DNA of 64,000 nt from sequence record MK977694.1; one strand, given 5' to 3'. Source of the DNA: Escherichia phage vB_EcoM-Sa45lw. The notes below the pieces were generated by a model. It was given only the letters and a program-made list of their open reading frames with translations, searched no databases and was not told the DNA's origin. The position numbers and the translations under genes were made by a program. Shown here piece after piece: positions 845-63,066 of the stretch; position 1 is the stretch's first letter, and the number at the start of each line of letters is the position of its first letter.

Positions 845-2128
845 ATGGCTAAAATCAACGAACTTCTGCGCGAATCAACCACAACGAATAGCAACTCAAT
901 CGGTCGCCCAAATCTCGTTGCTTTGACTCGCGCTACCACTAAATTAATATATTCTGACATTGTAGCAACGCAAAGAACTAATCAACCTGTTGCTGCTTTT
1001 TATGGTATCAAATACCTTAACCCAGACAATGAATTTACATTTAAAACTGGTGCTACTTACGCTGGCGAAGCTGGATATGTAGACCGAGAAAAAATCACAG
1101 AATTAACAGAAGAGTCTAAATTAACTCTCAATAAAGGCGATTTATTCAAATATAATAATATCGTTTATAAAGTATTAGAAGATACACCATTTGCTGATAT
1201 TGAAGAAAGCGACTTAGAGTTAGCTCTTCAGATTGCAATTGTTCTTTTAAAGGTTCGTCTATTTTCTGACGCAGCGTCAACAAGCAAATTTGAAAGCTCT
1301 GATAGTGAAATTGCGGATGCTAGATTCCAGATTAATAAATGGCAAACCACAGTTAAATCTCGCAAACTTAAAACTGGTATCACAGTTGAATTAGCACAAG
1401 ATTTAGAAGCAAACGGATTCGATGCTCCTAATTTCTTAGAAGATTTGCTTGCAACCGAAATGGCAGATGAAATCAATAAAGATATTCTGCAGTCTTTGAT
1501 TACAGTATCAAAACGTTATAAAGTTACAGGAATTACTGATACTGGATTCATTGATTTGAGTTATGCATCTGCACCTGAAGCTGGTCGTTCATTATACCGA
1601 ATGGTATGTGAAATGGTTTCGCATATCCAAAAAGAATCAACTTATACAGCAACGTTCTGTGTTGCTTCTGCTCGTGCCGCTGCGATTCTTGCTGCATCAG
1701 GTTGGTTAAAACATAAACCAGAAGATGACAAGTATCTTTCACAAAATGCCTACGGGTTCTTAGCTAATGGTTTACCGCTTTATTGCGATACTAACAGCCC
1801 ATTAGATTATGTAATCGTTGGCGTAGTAGAAAATATCGGTGAAAAAGAAATTGTTGGATCAATTTTCTATGCTCCGTATACAGAAGGTCTAGACTTAGAT
1901 GACCCTGAACATGTAGGTGCATTTAAAGTTGTTGTTGATCCAGAAAGCTTGCAACCGTCTATCGGTTTATTAGTTAGATATGCTTTATCTGCAAATCCTT
2001 ATACTGTAGCAAAAGATGAAAAAGAAGCAAGAGTAATTGATGGTGGAGACATGGATAAAATGGCGGGTCGTTCAGATTTGTCTGTTTTATTAGGTGTTAA
2101 ATTACCAAAAATTATTATCGATGAATAA
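845..2128 (+). CDS. 24: Capsid vertex protein gp24
   Basis: 427 aa, same length as T4 gp24; gp23-like fold expected; SD AGGAAAG upstream. Confidence 0.93.
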   Translation: MAKINELLRESTTTNSNSIGRPNLVALTRATTKLIYSDIVATQRTNQPVAAFYGIKYLNPDNEFTFKTGATYAGEAGYVDREKITELTEESKLTLNKGDLFKYNNIVYKVLEDTPFADIEESDLELALQIAIVLLKVRLFSDAASTSKFESSDSEIADARFQINKWQTTVKSRKLKTGITVELAQDLEANGFDAPNFLEDLLATEMADEINKDILQSLITVSKRYKVTGITDTGFIDLSYASAPEAGRSLYRMVCEMVSHIQKESTYTATFCVASARAAAILAASGWLKHKPEDDKYLSQNAYGFLANGLPLYCDTNSPLDYVIVGVVENIGEKEIVGSIFYAPYTEGLDLDDPEHVGAFKVVVDPESLQPSIGLLVRYALSANPYTVAKDEKEARVIDGGDMDKMAGRSDLSVLLGVKLPKIIIDE

Positions 2129-2157: not shown

Positions 2158-3162
2158 TTAGCTCACCAACTCAATCCAAGCTGGACGAAGTACATCTTGC
2201 ACCATTTTAACTAATTCCTTTTTAATCAAAGAAGGATTATCCGCTTGAGTTAGAGTAATACCTTCACGAGAAGTTTCTTCCAAAATATCTTGGACAGTTA
2301 GCCCCATCACCTTTCCAAAATCTTTAGGACCAATTTCGCCAATTTTAGAAATAACGTTATTTACTCGGTTCAGTGTAACGTAACAAGCTAAAATTCCCAC
2401 TAATTTGTTATCAGCTTCTGATAGTTCAACTTTAGCTTTAATAGGCTTATCAGACTTTTTCTTTTCACTAAATTTGGAATTCTTGCATTTAATTGCTACA
2501 CGATTTCCATTACGAAGCCAAGAAGGATAACAAGGTTTCAATACATATCCTTCAGCGGTAAATACTTCGCCTTTTGCTTCGGCATTCCAAACGCATTTAT
2601 TTGCATCAACTAATCCAGCATGGTCTACTGTAAAATTATAATCTTGGACGACAGAATCTAAATCATTTGGCAATTTAATAAGCTCTTCAAATTTACCGCG
2701 ACCTAAAAGTGGAGCCATTTTAAATTTAAATGTATTGCAGAATGATTCCATCATATAATCATCGACATAAGTCACGTCACCACTTTCTGTAGTGACAATA
2801 ATGTCAAATACATAGAAATCTTTATCACCATAATCAACATTCTTCTGAATGCCAGGTCCAGCGAATTCGCCAAAAACTTGATAAGTCACAACAGCTGAAG
2901 TTTCCATAATATCTTGTACTGCTTTAATGGAATCAGCGTAATTCTTTAGAATAATTTCATACCCAAAGAAATCTTCAGCAGGAAGAATCGGTCCAGTACG
3001 TTTAGCGCAAGTTACTTTATCACGCTCAATAATCAAAGAAAAGTTTGTTCCATGAATTTTTTCACGAGCTACCCATTCGCCGCCAGTCAATCCCAAGCTA
3101 TAAAGTTTTTCAATAAATTTAGAGTTGTAATGATTTTCAAGACTGCTATACTTTTTAAACAT
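2158..3162 (-). CDS. rnlB: RNA ligase 2 (Rnl2)
   Basis: 334 aa; ligase motif I KIHGTN; N-terminus [16 protein letters not shown] matches remembered T4 Rnl2. Confidence 0.93.
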
Positions 3163-3710: not shown

Positions 3711-3735
3711 AAATGAAGAAAGGGGCCGAAGCCCC
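3711..3735 (-). terminator. Terminator downstream of hoc
   Basis: On - strand GGGGC-ttcg-GCCCC followed by TTTCTTCATTTT. Confidence 0.6.
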
Positions 3736-3741
3736 TTTCGA

Positions 3742-5612: not shown

Positions 5613-7124
5613 ATGACTGACATTAAAGTACATTTTTATGATTTTAGTCACGTGAGAATTGATTGTGAAGAAAGTACATTTCATGAACTCCGTGATTTCT
5701 TTAGCTTTGAAGCTGATGGGTATCGTTTTAATCCGAAATACAAATATGGCCACTGGGATGGACGAATCCGTCTTTTAGATTATAATCGTCTTCTTCCATT
5801 CGGCTTAGTCGGGCAAATTAAAAAGTTCTGTGATAACTTTGGCTATAAAGCCTGGATTGACCCACAAATTAACGAAAAAGAAGAATTATCAAGAAAAGAT
5901 TTTGATGAATGGCTTTCTAAATTAGAAATCTATTCAGGAAATAAAAGAATTGAACCACACTGGTATCAAAAAGATGCAGTGTTCGAAGGATTAGTTAATC
6001 GTCGTAGAATTCTTAATCTTCCAACATCCGCTGGTAAATCGTTAATTCAAGCTTTACTCGCTCGGTATTATTTGGAAAATTACGAAGGTAAAATTCTTAT
6101 CATTGTTCCAACAACTGCTCTAACAACTCAGATGGCTGATGACTTCGTTGACTATCGTTTATTCAGTCATGCAATGATAAAGAAAATTGGTGGCGGAGCA
6201 TCAAAAGATGATAAATATAAAAATGACGCACCAGTCGTTGTTGGTACATGGCAAACTGTAGTTAAACAACCGAAAGAATGGTTCTCACAGTTTGGAATGA
6301 TGATGAATGATGAATGCCATCTTGCTACAGGAAAAAGTATTTCATCTATCATATCAGGTTTAAATAACTGTATGTTTAAATTTGGTCTATCAGGTTCATT
6401 ACGTGATGGCAAAGCCAATATCATGCAGTATGTTGGAATGTTCGGTGAAATATTTAAGCCAGTAACGACTTCTAAATTAATGGAAGATGGACAAGTAACT
6501 GAGCTAAAAATTAATAGTATTTTTCTTCGCTATCCCGATGAGTTCACTACTAAATTAAAGGGAAAAACTTATCAAGAAGAAATAAAAATTATTACTGGGC
6601 TTAGTAAAAGAAATAAATGGATCGCTAAATTAGCTATTAAGCTTGCGCAAAAAGATGAAAACGCTTTTGTCATGTTTAAACATGTATCACATGGTAAAGC
6701 TATTTTCGATTTAATTAAAAATGAATACGATAAAGTTTATTACGTATCAGGGGAAGTTGATACCGAAACCCGCAATATAATGAAAACCTTAGCTGAAAAT
6801 GGTAAAGGAATAATTATAGTAGCTAGTTATGGTGTATTTTCTACTGGTATTTCAGTTAAAAATCTGCACCACGTTGTTTTAGCACACGGTGTTAAATCAA
6901 AAATCATTGTATTACAAACAATCGGTCGTGTATTACGTAAGCATGGTTCTAAGACAATAGCAACAGTCTGGGACCTCATAGATGATTGTGGTGTTAAGCC
7001 AAAATCTGCTAATACGAAAAAGAAATATGTTCATTTGAACTATCTTTTAAAACACGGCATTGATCGTATTCAGCGCTACGCAGATGAAAAATTTAATTAC
7101 GTAATGAAAACAGTTAATTTATAA
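5613..7124 (+). CDS. uvsW: UvsW DNA/RNA helicase
   Basis: 503 aa; Walker A LPTSAGKS, DECH box; N-terminus MTDIKVHFYDFSH matches T4 UvsW. Confidence 0.95.
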   Translation: MTDIKVHFYDFSHVRIDCEESTFHELRDFFSFEADGYRFNPKYKYGHWDGRIRLLDYNRLLPFGLVGQIKKFCDNFGYKAWIDPQINEKEELSRKDFDEWLSKLEIYSGNKRIEPHWYQKDAVFEGLVNRRRILNLPTSAGKSLIQALLARYYLENYEGKILIIVPTTALTTQMADDFVDYRLFSHAMIKKIGGGASKDDKYKNDAPVVVGTWQTVVKQPKEWFSQFGMMMNDECHLATGKSISSIISGLNNCMFKFGLSGSLRDGKANIMQYVGMFGEIFKPVTTSKLMEDGQVTELKINSIFLRYPDEFTTKLKGKTYQEEIKIITGLSKRNKWIAKLAIKLAQKDENAFVMFKHVSHGKAIFDLIKNEYDKVYYVSGEVDTETRNIMKTLAENGKGIIIVASYGVFSTGISVKNLHHVVLAHGVKSKIIVLQTIGRVLRKHGSKTIATVWDLIDDCGVKPKSANTKKKYVHLNYLLKHGIDRIQRYADEKFNYVMKTVNL

Positions 7125-7149
7125 GGGCTTCGGCCCTTTGGAGAAAAAG

Positions 7150-16131: not shown

Positions 16132-18188
16132 TACATTTTGAACTTTTTAGACATTCCGTTAATGTTAACCAAAGAAGCTAAGATTTGAGAAACTTCGTTT
16201 TCCTCTTCTTTTGATTCTTCTACAAGGAATTGATTAAATCCAGCCATTGGACGAACTTCACCAGTTTCCATTAGATGGTCGCCATCATATACTGATTCTT
16301 CTAATTGTTCAGAAGGAGGAACGATTGTACCTTCGATTAGATACTTGTTATAAGCAGTTTCTTTCATAAAGTAAGTACTTACTTTATTAATCTTCAGTAA
16401 AATTCCACGTGGTAGAATAACTTCAGCTTCTGATGGAAATCCTGATAAATGACCCGGAACGATAACTTTAACTCGTTCAGCTCCTTTAATTACCATACCC
16501 ACGCTAGTTTCAGCATCTTCATTAGCATATGTAGAATGACTACCCATATGCATCAAATCTTCTGCATCAACGGAACCTTCTCCTTCACCAGAAAATACTG
16601 CTCCGGAATCATCTAAGGCCATATAATTTTTACCATACTCACCAAAGATATTTGGTTTAAGTGATGTAGATACGAAGTTCTTGAAATAGAACATTTTATT
16701 TTCAATGTTATGACGCAAAGTTTTAAAAGTAACTTCTTGTCCACGGTAAAGTGTAGTTCCTGGAGGAAGAACTGAACCTTTAGCAAACGCAGAATCCATA
16801 GTCTCGATGTGCTTAATAGCGCGCTCCATGTATTCTTCACGTGTAGAATCAGGTTTACCTAAAAGGAATGAGTTCATTTCAACATACGAATCTGCACAAT
16901 AATCTTCAATTACATCAGATTCAGCCTGAGTCAATCCTTTTGGAGTTACTTCAGTGCTTGCATATTCATACGCCTGAGCAGCGGATTCATCAATTAATTT
17001 ATAAATGCCATTCATGACAAATTGAATAATAGCTGTCTTTTCATCTGGCGTAGCTTTAGAACCTTTAACTAAATCATTGACAATTTTCTTAATAACATCA
17101 AAGCTATTAGAAATATTAATGTCAGCAAGATCGCTTAAAATTTTATCAGTTTTATAATCAAAGAATTCTTTATTCTTTAAATATTCTTGAGAACCTTGAT
17201 ATGTTATATCGCTCTGCAGCTTGATAGATGGATCACGTAAACGTGCATGGGCTAATGCAATATGATTTCGGAAGCTTTCTAGTTCATAATCACTAGATTT
17301 AAAACGAGAAGCACTCCTCATACCACCGATAGCTCCTTTGCCGAAGTTTGAACCAATCTGAATAACGCCAGAGTTCATTGGTCCTTCTGCTTTATATACC
17401 GGAACTTTAGATTCAAACTCTTGATATTTCTTAGCAGCAAAGCTATCACCCTGAAGTGAAGCATCAACAGTAGAATATTGAGCTTGTGCTGCTAATCGAC
17501 GACTAATTTTAGTTTTCTGAATAACAGCTTGATCCGTACGCTTATCATTTTCTAAAGCAATAGAAGCAGCAACTGCGACAGCTTTAGGAACAGCATTACC
17601 TGTTTTAACGTCTACATAAACATCACCGACTTTCGATTCAACTTTTGTGAATAACTCAGTTGAAATAGGAGGTACACCTGGAATGTCTTCTAAATTGGCA
17701 TTTTTACGGTAAACCATAATATATGCATATTTCTTATCATAGTCCCAGATTTCCTTTAAAAGAACATATCGACCTGCTCCTTTAGTACGTACTAAACGGT
17801 CAGCAATAACTTGCATTTGACGAGCAGCGCCATTTGTTTTACTTTTTAGTACGCGGAATAGGCATGCATCAATTTTATACTGTTTCATTGTTTGAAGAGC
17901 AGTATCAAAAACCGCATTAATGACACCAATTGGATTTCCACCCAAGTTTTTAAGCTTAACTAACGATAATTTCTCATTAACACCTATCATTACGATATGC
18001 ATCATTTTGTCGCCTGGCTTAACGTTTTTATTCGTATCACCGCCAGAGGTGTATGTACAAAATCGAAATCCAGGAAGAACGCTTTCTTCACCGGCTTGAA
18101 TAGCAAAAATTTGAGGTATTTTATGCTTAGGATTTAAGTTAACAACCGGCGCCGAAGCGCCGTCAAATAATTCTGTAATAAGTTCCAT
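16131..18188 (-). CDS. Alt-like ADP-ribosyltransferase paralog (intact)
   Basis: 685 aa; N-terminus MELITELFD as in Alt; ART motifs YRGQ, FVSTSL, EVILPRG. Confidence 0.85.
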   Translation of the reverse strand: MELITELFDGASAPVVNLNPKHKIPQIFAIQAGEESVLPGFRFCTYTSGGDTNKNVKPGDKMMHIVMIGVNEKLSLVKLKNLGGNPIGVINAVFDTALQTMKQYKIDACLFRVLKSKTNGAARQMQVIADRLVRTKGAGRYVLLKEIWDYDKKYAYIMVYRKNANLEDIPGVPPISTELFTKVESKVGDVYVDVKTGNAVPKAVAVAASIALENDKRTDQAVIQKTKISRRLAAQAQYSTVDASLQGDSFAAKKYQEFESKVPVYKAEGPMNSGVIQIGSNFGKGAIGGMRSASRFKSSDYELESFRNHIALAHARLRDPSIKLQSDITYQGSQEYLKNKEFFDYKTDKILSDLADINISNSFDVIKKIVNDLVKGSKATPDEKTAIIQFVMNGIYKLIDESAAQAYEYASTEVTPKGLTQAESDVIEDYCADSYVEMNSFLLGKPDSTREEYMERAIKHIETMDSAFAKGSVLPPGTTLYRGQEVTFKTLRHNIENKMFYFKNFVSTSLKPNIFGEYGKNYMALDDSGAVFSGEGEGSVDAEDLMHMGSHSTYANEDAETSVGMVIKGAERVKVIVPGHLSGFPSEAEVILPRGILLKINKVSTYFMKETAYNKYLIEGTIVPPSEQLEESVYDGDHLMETGEVRPMAGFNQFLVEESKEEENEVSQILASLVNINGMSKKFKM

Positions 18189-20316: not shown

Positions 20317-20323
20317 AAATTAA

Positions 20324-20337
20324 AGGCCCGAAGGCCT
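20324..20337 (-). terminator. Terminator hairpin downstream of ORF 20342-20527
   Basis: AGGCC-cgaa-GGCCT with T-rich flank on - strand. Confidence 0.5.
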
Positions 20338-20341
20338 TTAA

Positions 20342-20527
20342 TTAATAGAGAGCTAAAAGAGTACGATATACTTCAAACTTTGGACCTTTTTCATATGGAT
20401 CAAATCTTTCCGTGAATTCATCATATGCTAGTTTATCTGGGAATTCAAGAATAACCTGCGATACCGCAGTGGAAACATCTCCACCTTCTTTTTGAGCCAC
20501 GACAATTGTTTCTAAGTAAGCTTTCAT
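20342..20527 (-). CDS. Hypothetical protein
   Basis: 61 aa ORF, ATGA-type overlap with gene 30 stop. Confidence 0.5.
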   Translation of the reverse strand: MKAYLETIVVAQKEGGDVSTAVSQVILEFPDKLAYDEFTERFDPYEKGPKFEVYRTLLALY

Positions 20528-24224: not shown

Positions 24225-24264
24225 AGTATTTTCCTCAGTAAGGGGCCGAAGCCCCTGTTTTATT

Positions 24265-25088: not shown

Positions 25089-25117
25089 AACTTTATGCAA
25101 TCTTTGGAAAATAAAAA

Positions 25118-25138
25118 AGGACTCCCGAAGGAGTCCTT
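25118..25138 (-). terminator. Rho-independent terminator
   Basis: AAGGACTCC-ttcg-GGAGTCCTT followed by TTTTTTATTTT on - strand. Confidence 0.75.

Positions 25139-29292: not shown

Positions 29293-29293
<1 letters not shown>
29099..29293 (-). CDS. Hypothetical protein
   Basis: 64 aa ORF. Confidence 0.45.
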
Positions 29294-30493
<1,200 letters not shown>

Positions 30494-31928: not shown

Positions 31929-33516
<1,588 letters not shown>

Positions 33517-49971: not shown

Positions 49972-49976
49972 ACTGA

Positions 49977-49999
49977 GGGAGCCTTCGGGTTCCCTTTTT
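49977..49999 (+). terminator. Terminator after gene 35
   Basis: GGGAGCC-ttcg-GGTTCCC followed by TTTTT. Confidence 0.65.
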
Positions 50000-54025: not shown

Positions 54026-54030
54026 AATGA

Positions 54031-54044
54031 GGGGCTTCGGCCCC
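54031..54044 (+). other. GC hairpin between genes 37 and 38
   Basis: GGGGC-ttcg-GCCCC without strong T-run. Confidence 0.4.
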
Positions 54045-54056
54045 TTGGAGGTTTAT

Positions 54057-58338: not shown

Positions 58339-58370
58339 CGGTTTGTGAAAAAAATTTTTGAAATAAAAAA

Positions 58371-58390
58371 GGGAGAGCCTCGGCTCTCCC
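58371..58390 (-). terminator. Rho-independent terminator
   Basis: GGGAGAGC-cgag-GCTCTCCC followed by TTTTTTATTT on - strand. Confidence 0.75.
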
Positions 58391-58395
58391 TAAAA

Positions 58396-58545
58396 TTACT
58401 GCATGACTGTGATAACTGTCATGATAACACGTTGAATTCCGAACGCAAGAAGACCTCCTGCTACGGCTGGAACAACACCTAAACCCGTCAGTAAAATGCT
58501 ACCGGATACTAATGCAGCGCTTGTAATACCTATGAATGGACTCAT
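58396..58545 (-). CDS. Small hydrophobic membrane peptide
   Basis: 49 aa MSPFIGITSAALVSGSILLTGLGVVPAVAGGLLAFGI...; ATGA overlap with the gene 52 stop. Confidence 0.45.
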   Translation of the reverse strand: MSPFIGITSAALVSGSILLTGLGVVPAVAGGLLAFGIQRVIMTVITVMQ

Positions 58546-59870
58546 TTGATTTCCTCTAAATCTTTGGTGTATTCTGTAACTACATTAGTAGTTTTCCAAT
58601 ATTCGTTTTCTTCTTTTTTAGCTTTAGCTTCTTCAGCAAGTTTCTTTGCTTCGTCGGAAGTCATATGAAAAATATTCATTCCAACTAATTTATCAACATA
58701 AGAAGAATACATCTCAATTTTAGAAAGTTCTTCGGTCAGTTCTTTGCGAGTTTTACCCTGTACAACAATTTCACCTGAAATTACTTTCTTAATGAAATGT
58801 GCCTTGGCAAAGGCTAAACGAAATGCTGACTCAGTTTCTTTGATTTTGTTATCAATTCGTTTTTGGACATAAGTTTTACGAACTTCAACAAAGTCTTTAA
58901 TTAAATCGACTACGTTATCGTAAACTTGTAGTTTTCCTTTCTCATTAATAACCGTAATATTCTGAGAACGACGCTCAATCAACCCGAAGTCTTTCATAAT
59001 TTTTGCGTGGCGTTCTTCTTCATTATCGCTCAAAGAATATTCTTTACGGAATTTAACTTTGAATCCAAAACCGTGCTCACCGCAAGCATCATCCCATGTA
59101 ATGAAGCCTTTATCTTCAAGTGGGTCTAAGATTTTACTCACATAAGTTTCACGATCATACTTATACGGAATCTCAGTGATATGCATTTGAGTTCGTGAAG
59201 TAAACTTATATGTTCCACGAATTTCATATTGGCCATCAATCTCAACGACTTCACCACGAAATTCTGGGAATTCTACCTTCGGTTTAGTTACTTTCTTTCC
59301 TTGAAGAGCTTGTAATACAGCTTTCTTAACAGAAGAAACACTATGAGGAAGAATGTAAGTTGCATAACCAGTTGCAATACCGGAAACACCATTAAGAAGA
59401 ACAGTAGGAATAATAGGCAAATAGAAAGCAGGCGGAATGTGTTCTTTATCTTGATGTACCGGAGCATATTCAGTATCTTTATATACGTTATAGAAATTTT
59501 TACTTACACGAGCAAAAATATAACGACTTGCTGCTGCTTTTTGGACGGTACGAGAACCAAAGTTTCCTTGACCATCTAACAGAGGAAAGTTATTATTCCA
59601 AGTGTTAGCCATCAAAGCACCTGCGTCTTGTGCAGAGTTTTCGCCATGGTGATATCCAAGGTCCGCTACACCACCTGCAATAGAAGCGAGTTTGTGAAAC
59701 TTATCTTTATTTCCTCGTGCCAAATCAAGAGCTCGAGCAATAACAAATCGTTGAACTGGCTTAAATCCATCAATCATATTTGGAATAGCACGATTTTCAA
59801 CCGTGTACATAGCATAAGCCAATGCTTCATTATCAATGATACTTTTTAAATCGCGATTATTCAGTTGCAT
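58542..59870 (-). CDS. 52: DNA topoisomerase II medium subunit gp52
   Basis: 442 aa, position and length as T4 gp52. Confidence 0.95.
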   Translation of the reverse strand: MQLNNRDLKSIIDNEALAYAMYTVENRAIPNMIDGFKPVQRFVIARALDLARGNKDKFHKLASIAGGVADLGYHHGENSAQDAGALMANTWNNNFPLLDGQGNFGSRTVQKAAASRYIFARVSKNFYNVYKDTEYAPVHQDKEHIPPAFYLPIIPTVLLNGVSGIATGYATYILPHSVSSVKKAVLQALQGKKVTKPKVEFPEFRGEVVEIDGQYEIRGTYKFTSRTQMHITEIPYKYDRETYVSKILDPLEDKGFITWDDACGEHGFGFKVKFRKEYSLSDNEEERHAKIMKDFGLIERRSQNITVINEKGKLQVYDNVVDLIKDFVEVRKTYVQKRIDNKIKETESAFRLAFAKAHFIKKVISGEIVVQGKTRKELTEELSKIEMYSSYVDKLVGMNIFHMTSDEAKKLAEEAKAKKEENEYWKTTNVVTEYTKDLEEIK

Positions 59871-59874
59871 AAAT

Positions 59875-60021
59875 TTACCATACTAGTGAATGTAGTGCCA
59901 TAATAACATCAGAAATGAAAAGCACGACTTGAATTAATCCGAACATTACTCCATAATATAGTGCTACTAATAAAGCAGCAAGGGCTAATGAATAGCCCAA
60001 GATTTTCTTAATCATTTTCAT
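59875..60021 (-). CDS. Small hydrophobic protein (52.1 position)
   Basis: 48 aa MKMIKKILGYSLALAALLVALYYG... Confidence 0.4.
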   Translation of the reverse strand: MKMIKKILGYSLALAALLVALYYGVMFGLIQVVLFISDVIMALHSLVW

Positions 60022-60160
60022 TTAATAGCCAAAACAATGATAAAATTGCTAATACGCCTTGAGCTGTTGCTTGTAAAAATACTGAAGTTTCTCCAGTTAT
60101 TACTGTTCCGGCGAATAAAAAGGACCAGCAGAAAAAGGCTATACCATAAACAAATTTCAT
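60005..60160 (-). CDS. ac: Ac-like small membrane protein (acridine sensitivity)
   Basis: 51 aa MKFVYGIAFFCWSFLFAGTVITG...; SD GAGGAAA; size and position as T4 ac. Confidence 0.5.
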
Positions 60161-60167
60161 ATTTTCC

Positions 60168-60248
60168 TCACTGGCGTCCGAAGACGCCTTTAGTTTTAAG
60201 ATTGTTACGATAGAACTGCATCACATGTTCGTTATGGAAATTACTCAT
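60168..60248 (-). CDS. stp: Stp peptide (activator of host PrrC anticodon nuclease)
   Basis: 26 aa [26 protein letters not shown], matching my recollection of T4 Stp; start overlaps ndd stop (TAATG). Confidence 0.8.
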
Positions 60249-60706
60249 TAATATGCCTGTAAAACAAATTTAAAATTATCAGCCAACATACGGTTCATTT
60301 CTTCAAGTGTTTGATACTCAGAATGATGATTACGAGTAAACGCCAGAGCTAACTGACCTTTACCAAATCCCGTCGTCAGAGGTTTCATCTTAGAAGCAGG
60401 CAGATAAAATACTGTGTATGCCATATTGTTATTTGCAATAGTACGCGCAAGCTGAGACCGGCGTTGACGAATATGACTTAGAACTGCGCTGAATCCTTGC
60501 TTAGAACGCTGATTACCTACATAAAATCGTGCTGACACACATGGATTACTAAATGGACGACCATCTAATTTACTTACTAAAAAGTAAAATCCAGGTTTAG
60601 ATAAAATATCTTTATGCGGAGTTCCCAAAAACCACTCACCGCCCTTGATTGTACCAATAACAGTAGCGCCTGCATTATTTAGATCAGTAACAGTCATATA
60701 TTTCAT
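60248..60706 (-). CDS. ndd: Ndd nucleoid disruption protein
   Basis: 152 aa from [18 protein letters not shown] with GAGGA SD. Confidence 0.9.
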
Positions 60707-60764
60707 ATTAATTTCCTCTAAATTATTTTCTACTCCAAGGCCGCATGAATACGCGGCCATTAAA

Positions 60765-60980
60765 TTAATCGTCGCAGTCGACGCTCAATTCCCAAAACTC
60801 TTCTACTGTATAAGTTTCAGTATCATTTTCAATACAGAAACGTTCATTACTGTTATTTGCTAAAGTAGCGTTAACTGTCGGTTTCTCGCTAGTGCTCTTA
60901 AGAGGTGAAATACGAATTAACTGATCACCGTTATCTAAACAGAAAATTTCACCAACTTTTACATCTTTAAAACTTTTCAT
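60765..60980 (-). CDS. Hypothetical protein
   Basis: 71 aa ORF. Confidence 0.5.
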
Positions 60981-62813: not shown

Positions 62814-62843
62814 AAGGGCCGAAGCCCTTATTTAAATTGTTCA
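62814..62843 (-). repeat. 30 bp repeat (last codons EQFK + stop + terminator hairpin), copy 1
   Basis: Identical to 63037-63066. Confidence 0.9.
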
Positions 62844-63022: not shown

Positions 63023-63036
63023 AATTTTCCTTAGTT

Positions 63037-63066
63037 AAGGGCCGAAGCCCTTATTTAAATTGTTCA
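63037..63066 (-). repeat. 30 bp repeat, copy 2 (3' end of rIIB + terminator)
   Basis: Identical to 62814-62843. Confidence 0.9.

Follow-up and report, generated by a model that had tools for sequence, protein, structure and literature searches.

On the minus strand of a 64,000-nucleotide stretch of DNA from Escherichia phage vB_EcoM-Sa45lw (sequence record MK977694.1; the whole stretch is referred to below as the window), three very small genes, stp, ac and 52.1, fill the interval between ndd, the nucleoid disruption gene, and gene 52, which encodes the medium subunit of topoisomerase II. The features recognised at this locus, beginning with the micro-genes themselves, are as follows.

60168..60248, minus strand: stp, encoding a 26-amino-acid peptide identical to the T4 protein, an inhibitor of type IC restriction and activator of PrrC (PF08133; PHROG 6763)
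60008..60160, minus strand: ac of type II, encoding a 50-amino-acid hydrophobic homologue of T4 Ac (PHROG 2501; BLASTP match to T4 Ac)
59875..60015, minus strand: 52.1, encoding a very hydrophobic 46-amino-acid protein identical to T4 gp52.1 (DUF7396; PHROG 3595)
60166..60169, minus strand: GAGG, the Shine-Dalgarno sequence of ac, 5 nucleotides 5' of its ATG and overlapping the TGA of stp (read from the sequence)
60173..60188, minus strand: C(UUCG)G tetraloop hairpin, GGCGUC-UUCG-GACGCC, in stp codons 21-26 (-11.5 kcal/mol)
60248..60703, minus strand: ndd, 5' of stp (Pfam PF06591 at 1.5e-94)
58542..59870, minus strand: gene 52, 3' of 52.1 (Pfam PF00521, 9e-77; PHROG 551, 9e-221)
58370..58391, minus strand: intrinsic terminator after motA.1, with a 9-bp stem of which 6 pairs are GC, followed by a T-run; the wV7 record annotates a rho-independent terminator there

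Layout and identity of the micro-gene cluster

Three minus-strand open reading frames (ORFs) are listed by the ORF finder, at 59875-60021 (48 amino acids), 60008-60160 (50 amino acids) and 60168-60248 (26 amino acids), flanked by gene 52 (58542-59870) and ndd (60248-60760 as an ORF), both likewise on the minus strand. Read 5' to 3' along that strand (region 59850-60300), the end of ndd is followed by TAATG, in which the ndd stop and the stp start overlap by one nucleotide, by the 26-codon ORF, by TGAGGAAAATATG, which contains the stp stop TGA (60168-60170), and then by the 50-codon ORF, the 46-codon ORF and gene 52. The sequence TGAGGAAAATATG is unchanged among relatives, regardless of the gene downstream. 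The conserved start of 52.1 lies inside the end of ac in an 8-nucleotide overlap (ATGATTAA), the terminal ac codons AAT GAT TAA overlapping the ATG ATT AAG of the 46-codon ORF, and only 4 nucleotides separate the 52.1 stop from the gene 52 ATG. An in-frame ATG two codons further upstream, absent from T4, RB32 and wV7, whose 52.1 starts at MIKKIL, extends the overlap to 14 nucleotides and is the reason why the ORF finder lists 52.1 as 48 amino acids. The initial annotation had described three ORFs of fewer than 60 codons, packed between gene 52 and ndd with overlapping stops and starts, and had named them 52.1, ac and stp; the ORF list and the reading of the junctions bear this out, its coordinates 59875-60248 are the exact bounds of the three ORFs, and the names are correct. 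The T4 reference record annotates 52, 52.1 (141 nucleotides), ac (156 nucleotides), stp (81 nucleotides) and ndd in the same order and with the same overlaps, as does the RB32 record. An antisense ORF of 58 amino acids (60037-60213, plus strand) was rejected as a mirror of the ac frame that is annotated in no record.

Database comparisons assign each of the three products to a family. The 26-residue peptide, recognised as Stp in the initial annotation, aligns with T4 Stp at 100% identity over all 26 residues. It scores 75.3 bits with Pfam PF08133 (cut-off 25; E 2e-21), the match spanning all 26 profile positions, and also matches PHROG 6763 (4.4e-21); its gene is located directly 3' of ndd and 5' of ac, as in T4 and RB32. 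The 52.1 product matches Pfam DUF7396 (80.9 bits, cut-off 27; E 7e-23). The window Ac aligns with T4 Ac at 38% identity over 47 amino acids (BLASTP, E 8e-9), and PHROG 2501 is matched by both, at 8.7e-23 and 2.2e-25, respectively; neither query matched a Pfam family. The PHROG matches of the trio (families 6763, 2501 and 3595) range from 1e-21 to 1e-25. The two hydrophobic products of about 50 amino acids had been put forward as membrane candidates, which agrees with their T4 annotation as predicted membrane proteins and with grand average of hydropathy (GRAVY) values of 1.73 for gp52.1 and 1.03 for Ac, a small predicted membrane protein in which TGETSVFLQATAQG lies between two hydrophobic stretches.

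With a 701-nucleotide query around the cluster, 584 phage records were matched, nearly all of them T4-like phages of Escherichia, Shigella and Yersinia, the top full-length matches (wV7 and relatives) being 98.4% identical; a 24-kb query gave 96-98% identity to wV7, KIT03 and CAM-21. In nucleotide sequence, ac is 58.6% identical to its T4 counterpart, against 96% for ndd, 98.8% for stp, 100% for the 7-nucleotide spacer, 98.6% for 52.1 and 99.3% for gene 52. Phage records matched by tblastn number 798 for Stp, 729 for gp52.1 and 243 for the window-type Ac. Among the distinct sequences collected from the T4-like and Dhaka-like loci carrying each gene, variable sites at codon positions 1, 2 and 3 amount to 4, 3 and 15 in stp, 12, 6 and 25 in 52.1, and 0, 1 and 6 in T4-type ac, a concentration at third positions that points to purifying selection on the proteins.

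The segment is thus read, with a probability of about 0.93, as the T4 early-gene stretch ndd-stp-ac-52.1-52-motA.1 in a T4-like Tequatrovirus of the wV7/KIT03 group. The gene identities, synteny, junction anatomy and coding constraint that carry this reading were all observed in the present analysis. The stp/ac/52.1 cluster, its products and the Stp-PrrC-repair pathway are already textbook T4 biology, and the divergent type of Ac is the only local departure from T4.

Several points weigh against this reading. Translation of stp, ac and 52.1 in this phage is deduced from the sequence; in T4, the RNAs of the three genes are classed as early (PMC9697503, Table S2), and the time-resolved proteome, in which Ndd is quantified, gives them the protein class NA (PMC9697503), which neither confirms nor refutes their translation. 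The Shine-Dalgarno sequences of stp and 52.1 are weak or absent, which leaves coupling to the preceding genes an inference. T4 Ac, the type studied by genetics, is only 38% identical to the window Ac, for which no Pfam family was matched, and no tested function was found for gp52.1. The lack of a protein-level class in T4, combined with sizes under the usual gene-caller cut-offs, would also suit untranslated ORFs that are open by chance in an AT-rich spacer. Such an origin would be at odds with the matches to curated families, the conserved copies in hundreds of records, the third-position bias among variable sites and the long-established T4 genetics on stp and ac, and the antisense ORF merely mirrors the ac frame; its probability is therefore considered negligible.

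The strong intrinsic terminator after motA.1 places the micro-genes inside a polycistronic unit that runs from ndd, or from further upstream, through 52 and motA.1, and stp, ac and 52.1 would be translated from one early transcript ending at this terminator. Start signals appear to be packed into the preceding genes, with stp beginning on the ndd stop (TAATG) and the GAGG of ac, the only clear Shine-Dalgarno sequence of the three (5 nucleotides before the ATG), lying across the stp stop. The start of 52.1, 8 nucleotides within the end of ac, suggests termination-reinitiation coupling; since the stp and 52.1 starts lie on or within the preceding stop, both genes are probably coupled translationally to their upstream neighbours. 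A scan for sigma-70-like promoters returned 16 sites against 14.4 expected, a background level that is uninformative on the promoter driving the unit. A MotA-box-like sequence in 52.1 (TGCTTTA-N12-TATTAT; 59953-59977, minus strand), considered as a possible middle promoter of gene 52, was dropped as not conserved, being found in T4, wV7 and one other locus and missing from RB32 and most relatives.

At the upstream border, the ndd frame remains open for 19 codons past the T4-annotated start (60703), up to an ATG at 60760 (60704-60760, minus strand). Annotated ndd starts vary, RB32 having the long form of 170 amino acids, T4 the form of 151 amino acids and wV7 also a shorter form, and the Pfam Ndd model starts at residue 19 of the long form.

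Stp and the hairpin within its gene

Stp relieves type IC restriction (EcoprrI and EcoR124I) and is without effect on type IA enzymes; this relief unmasks PrrC, leading to cleavage of tRNA-Lys, and the cut is mended by polynucleotide kinase/phosphatase (Pnkp) and RNA ligase 1 (Rnl1) (PMC3014915). Loss-of-function mutations cluster at residues 4-14, and loss of the last 8 codons reduces activity only moderately (PMC3014915); the mechanism is also covered in PMC12707154. Because the peptide is identical to T4 Stp, with 26 amino acids and the N-proximal 18 residues intact, this literature applies to the window phage. Judged by its sequence, the window Stp is expected to inhibit the type IC enzymes EcoprrI and EcoR124I and to activate PrrC in prr+ cells: in hosts carrying prrC, the inhibition would free the latent PrrC nuclease, which would cut the anticodon loop of tRNA-Lys, and Pnkp and Rnl1, encoded 27-30 kb away, would heal and seal the cut. 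A PDB search with Stp gave no match even at E<=10, and a literature search for a structural study of Stp or PrrC found none.

That automated calling overlooks the peptide gene had been anticipated in the initial annotation, and existing records agree. The RB32 annotators describe stp and 52.1 as 'not predicted by GeneMarkS or Glimmer', and the wV7 record has no stp coding sequence. In an evenly drawn sample of 37 full-length T4-like tblastn hits, only Ndd is listed under the Stp match in 31, and an Stp-type product is named in 2.

Codons 21-26 of stp read GGC GUC UUC GGA CGC C and fold into the C(UUCG)G hairpin, whose stability was equalled in 3 of 200 shuffles. Among T4-like and Dhaka-like genomes, 19 stp copies were examined and every one keeps the hairpin, the only changes being two or three single-sided ones that yield G-U pairs and one in the loop (UUCG to UUUG); it always lies directly before TGAGGAAAATATG, whichever gene comes next. 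Counting stems of 4 bp or longer, the window has 14 C(UUCG)G hairpins against 0.7 expected from shuffles, several of them immediately 5' of a Shine-Dalgarno sequence and ATG. In the Stp homologues of siphoviruses described below, the codons for GVFGK form no hairpin, so that the choice of codons in T4-like stp appears to be set by RNA structure; the strength of this suggestion is moderate, as no double compensatory change was seen.

Conceivably, the main constraint on the 3' quarter of stp is its role as an RNA element, one that protects the upstream mRNA or presents the ribosome-binding site of ac, and the C-terminus of the peptide matters less. The stable fold, its retention in each of the 19 T4-like and Dhaka-like copies, the constant abutment on TGAGGAAAATATG, the excess of such hairpins before start signals and the hairpin-free siphovirus codons would all fit, as would the moderate loss of activity when the 8 C-terminal codons of Stp are removed (PMC3014915). 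However, the covariation support is weak, the KTKGVFG residues are kept in the hairpin-less siphovirus homologues, which indicates that the C-terminus of the peptide is itself somewhat constrained, and no Rfam family matches: a scan of 59500-60900 at E<=1 returned only a chance-level CncR1 hit (16 bits against a gathering score of 76) and no curated hairpin family. An element could also act on the plus strand, on which the repeat with its T-run resembles a terminator. This account of the end of stp is accordingly held as a tentative one, on the doubtful side.

Additional observations concern the same element. On the plus strand (60173-60198), the inverted repeat is followed by TTTAGTTTTA and scored as intrinsic-terminator-like; this form could stop antisense transcription into the early region. 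A wider fold of 131 nucleotides around stp had a z-score of -0.26, only the local 16-nucleotide hairpin standing out. In wV7 (L002) and three further loci (L014, L015 and L042), Stp ends after 25 amino acids, TAA taking the place of CAG (Gln-26); with this C-to-T change, the hairpin has a G-U instead of its closing G-C pair, and the stem is kept. The wV7 Stp additionally carries L17F. Other C(UUCG)G hairpins of the window include those on the plus strand at 775-794, 7123-7138, 49975-49996 and 54028-54047, and on the minus strand at 3718-3739, 18147-18162, 20318-20343, 24241-24256, 25117-25138, 62814-62829 and 63036-63053.

The ac gene and the plasticity of the interval

The window Ac is 96% identical to the Ac of wV7 and 80% identical to that of RB32, and Ac proteins of this type at >=90% identity occur in about 16 database records. 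T4 carries type I alone and the window type II alone. In T4_ev151 (L003 1741-2065, gene orientation), both types stand in tandem between stp and 52.1, type II coming first, and a TGAGGA...ATG junction precedes either copy; PhiZZ6, Shfl2, UFV-AREG1 and slur07 are taken to share this arrangement, since their matches to the query fall into two pieces that span about 170 bp more than the window sequence. In two-copy phages, the window type adjoins stp and the T4 type adjoins 52.1. Residues 1-43 of the window Ac are 93% identical to the stp-proximal copy, and its C-terminus, LLNEND, resembles the 52.1-proximal copy.

Ac has been proposed to insert in the membrane and impair AcrAB-TolC efflux, the presence of T4-type ac leading to acridine sensitivity and its loss to resistance (bioRxiv 10.1101/2025.06.30.662393); the AcrAB-TolC idea is repeated as an assumption in a 2026 PNAS paper (PMC13250531). 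The BLASTN survey in the preprint comprises only alleles 93-100% identical to T4 ac (bioRxiv 10.1101/2025.06.30.662393), and for this reason acridine sensitivity is inferred for the window allele: Ac would be a small membrane protein that in T4 sensitises infected cells to acridines, and by analogy the type II protein may do the same.

The range of that survey would equally leave room for the window ac being a T4 ac paralogue whose activity differs, in which case 'acridine resistance protein' would be a label acquired by annotation transfer only. Such a view would account for the 38% identity of Ac to T4 next to 100% for its neighbours Stp and gp52.1, for a drop in nucleotide identity to 58.6% that runs exactly from the ac ATG to the 52.1 ATG, and for the stp-acII-acI-52.1 tandem of T4_ev151 and the phages with two-piece matches, in which the keeping of both copies suggests non-redundancy. 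It is nevertheless thought rather unlikely, because one PHROG family holds both types at 1e-23 to 1e-25 and because the two agree in length and hydropathy pattern, in the SVF-QA-AQG core, in position and in overlapping 52.1. In either case, the label covers at least two Ac types less than 40% identical, of which one has been experimentally characterised.

The interval as a whole was surveyed in 37 IMG/VR loci anchored on ndd, in which ndd and gene 52 are separated by 254 to 853 nucleotides. The most widely retained gene of the interval is 52.1. The stp gene is present in close T4-like loci, whose ndd is 96-99% identical, and in some members of the Dhaka-like group, with an ndd identity of about 59-62%; it was undetected in the remaining, more distant loci of the survey. 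The slot from the hairpin/Shine-Dalgarno junction to the 52.1 start is occupied by varying hydrophobic micro-ORFs. In two Dhaka-like loci (L013 2941-3620 and L016 3109-3790), the cassette is duplicated at a common GAGTAAT microhomology and contains a variant stp (…QWHRHNLKLTGVFGRP) and an Ac-like ORF, a fragment of 52.1 with a frameshift, an stp remnant that lacks a start, a 53-amino-acid hydrophobic ORF of a third type and finally an intact 52.1. The second stp copy was considered as a 52.1-stp fusion, a candidate that was rejected because the remnant lacks a start and is out of frame with the frameshifted 52.1 fragment. As for the retained 52.1, its product is most likely an inner-membrane protein that works jointly with Ac, its presumed partner in translational coupling.

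RNA-repair genes, Stp-like peptides elsewhere and comparison with T4

The genes for the enzymes that mend tRNA-Lys, and for a second RNA ligase, are found elsewhere in the window.

29293..30198, minus strand: pseT, polynucleotide kinase/phosphatase of 301 amino acids, healing step of tRNA-Lys repair (HAD_PNKP at 1e-59 plus a kinase domain; PDB 1ltq at 7e-186)
31929..33053, minus strand: rnlA, RNA ligase 1 of 374 amino acids, sealing step of tRNA-Lys repair (T4_Rnl1_C, 2e-39; RNA_lig_T4_1, 2e-25; PDB 2c5u, 1e-254)
2158..3162, minus strand: rnlB, RNA ligase 2 (PHROG 548 'RNA ligase', 1.4e-139, full 334 amino acids)

The phage thus carries genes for both the healing (Pnkp) and the sealing (Rnl1) enzymes. 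The initial annotation had reported the kinase at 29293-30198, RNA ligase 1 at 31929-33053 and RNA ligase 2, all of which the Pfam, PDB and PHROG matches confirm; its placing of Stp 'alongside' this counter-module was overstated, since stp is separated from pseT by 30.0 kb and from rnlA by 27.1 kb and the two repair genes belong to other transcription units; the spacing in T4 is the same (stp at 165505, pseT at 134002-134907, rnlA at 136340-137464). A physically linked island of trigger and counter-module, in which functional clustering would explain the co-occurrence of the three genes, could draw on their common strand within the window and on the T4 annotation, which ties rnlA and pseT to prr hosts. 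Yet dozens of genes and terminators intervene, and stp shares the window with the repair genes only because 64 kb exceeds a third of the genome. Stp-like ORFs are, moreover, present in siphoviruses of 42-52 kb, among them RP180, in which no Rnl1 or Rnl2 homologue was detected and only a weak match to the PseT phosphatase domain was found. An island of this kind is accordingly very improbable.

The siphovirus peptides came to light in a DNA search that matched Kagunavirus RP180 (88.9% over 72 nucleotides) and Bas95, each with one unannotated Stp-like ORF of 25 amino acids. Further Stp homologues with a good Shine-Dalgarno sequence were found in Ro145c2YLVW, ZL19, XT34, YX3973 and KKP 3830, and tblastn with the KKP 3830 peptide matched 185 records, nearly all of them siphoviruses of 42-52 kb and mostly without a feature under the match. 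These ORFs encode 25-26 amino acids with the common core MS(N/S)xHNEH(V/I)MQxYR and have Shine-Dalgarno sequences of their own; examples lie at L005 1719-1796 (minus strand), at L006 2488-2565 (minus strand) and, in L044-L048, around 1501-1581 (plus strand). Carriers include Kagunavirus, Drexlerviridae and unclassified phages of Salmonella, Klebsiella, Citrobacter and Enterobacter. In the BASEL record Bas81, an Stp-like peptide is labelled as PrrC activator. In RP180, a Raoultella phage, a P-loop kinase-like protein, a HAD phosphatase and a metallophosphoesterase are encoded next to one another (L050 13561-15727, minus strand), the HAD phosphatase being 26% identical to the phosphatase domain of PseT (E 6e-8); these genes may serve nucleotide metabolism or RNA repair.

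The reviews consulted present Stp as a T4 peptide (PMC12707154). A combined proposal, on which the odds are judged to be even, is that Stp is a horizontally mobile anti-type-IC peptide that extends beyond the T-even phages, and that the stp hairpin with TGAGGAAAATATG on one side and ATGATTAA on the other serve as fixed junctions between which hydrophobic micro-genes are swapped, duplicated and lost. If so, Stp would be a widespread potential trigger of PrrC-like guards. The peptide gene is absent from most deposited annotations of T4-like genomes and from nearly all those of siphoviruses with a homologue, and surveys of anti-restriction genes and PrrC triggers will consequently undercount it. 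Only two leads merit a follow-up, the hairpin overlaid on stp and the wide occurrence of Stp-like peptides, mostly unannotated, and these lie largely outside the window; for the window itself there is little consequence, and the practical lessons concern annotation.

Set against T4, the known system, the cluster is largely the same. The T4 gene stp (T4p267, NP_049878; PF08133, 'Anticodon nuclease activator family') encodes an identical 26-amino-acid protein and likewise follows ndd directly, with the TAATG overlap, the 3' hairpin and the junction to ac; the window gene differs by one synonymous change, CAC to CAT at His-8, with no functional difference. T4 gp52.1 (T4p265, NP_049876; DUF7396) has the identical 46-amino-acid sequence in the same position, whereas in the window, the overlapping terminal part of ac has an A-to-G substitution that gives rise to the extra in-frame ATG (60021), two codons upstream. 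Intercistronic C(UUCG)G hairpins of T4 are said to have been described as a class by Tuerk et al. in 1988 (in PNAS). The stp hairpin resembles them in its loop, closing pair, GC-rich 6-bp stem and position just 5' of a Shine-Dalgarno sequence and ATG; unlike them, it is not intercistronic but lies within a coding sequence, where the final six stp codons form it. The T4 ac gene (T4p266, NP_049877), known as an acridine sensitivity/resistance locus, occupies the same slot between stp and 52.1 with the same stop/start overlap, and its product of 51 amino acids, compared with 50 in the window, has similar hydropathy and belongs to the same PHROG 2501. The two nevertheless differ, with 38% amino-acid and 58.6% nucleotide identity, the window ac being of the RB32/wV7 type, which the RB32 annotators called 'more similar to RB69', and T4 ac being of the other.

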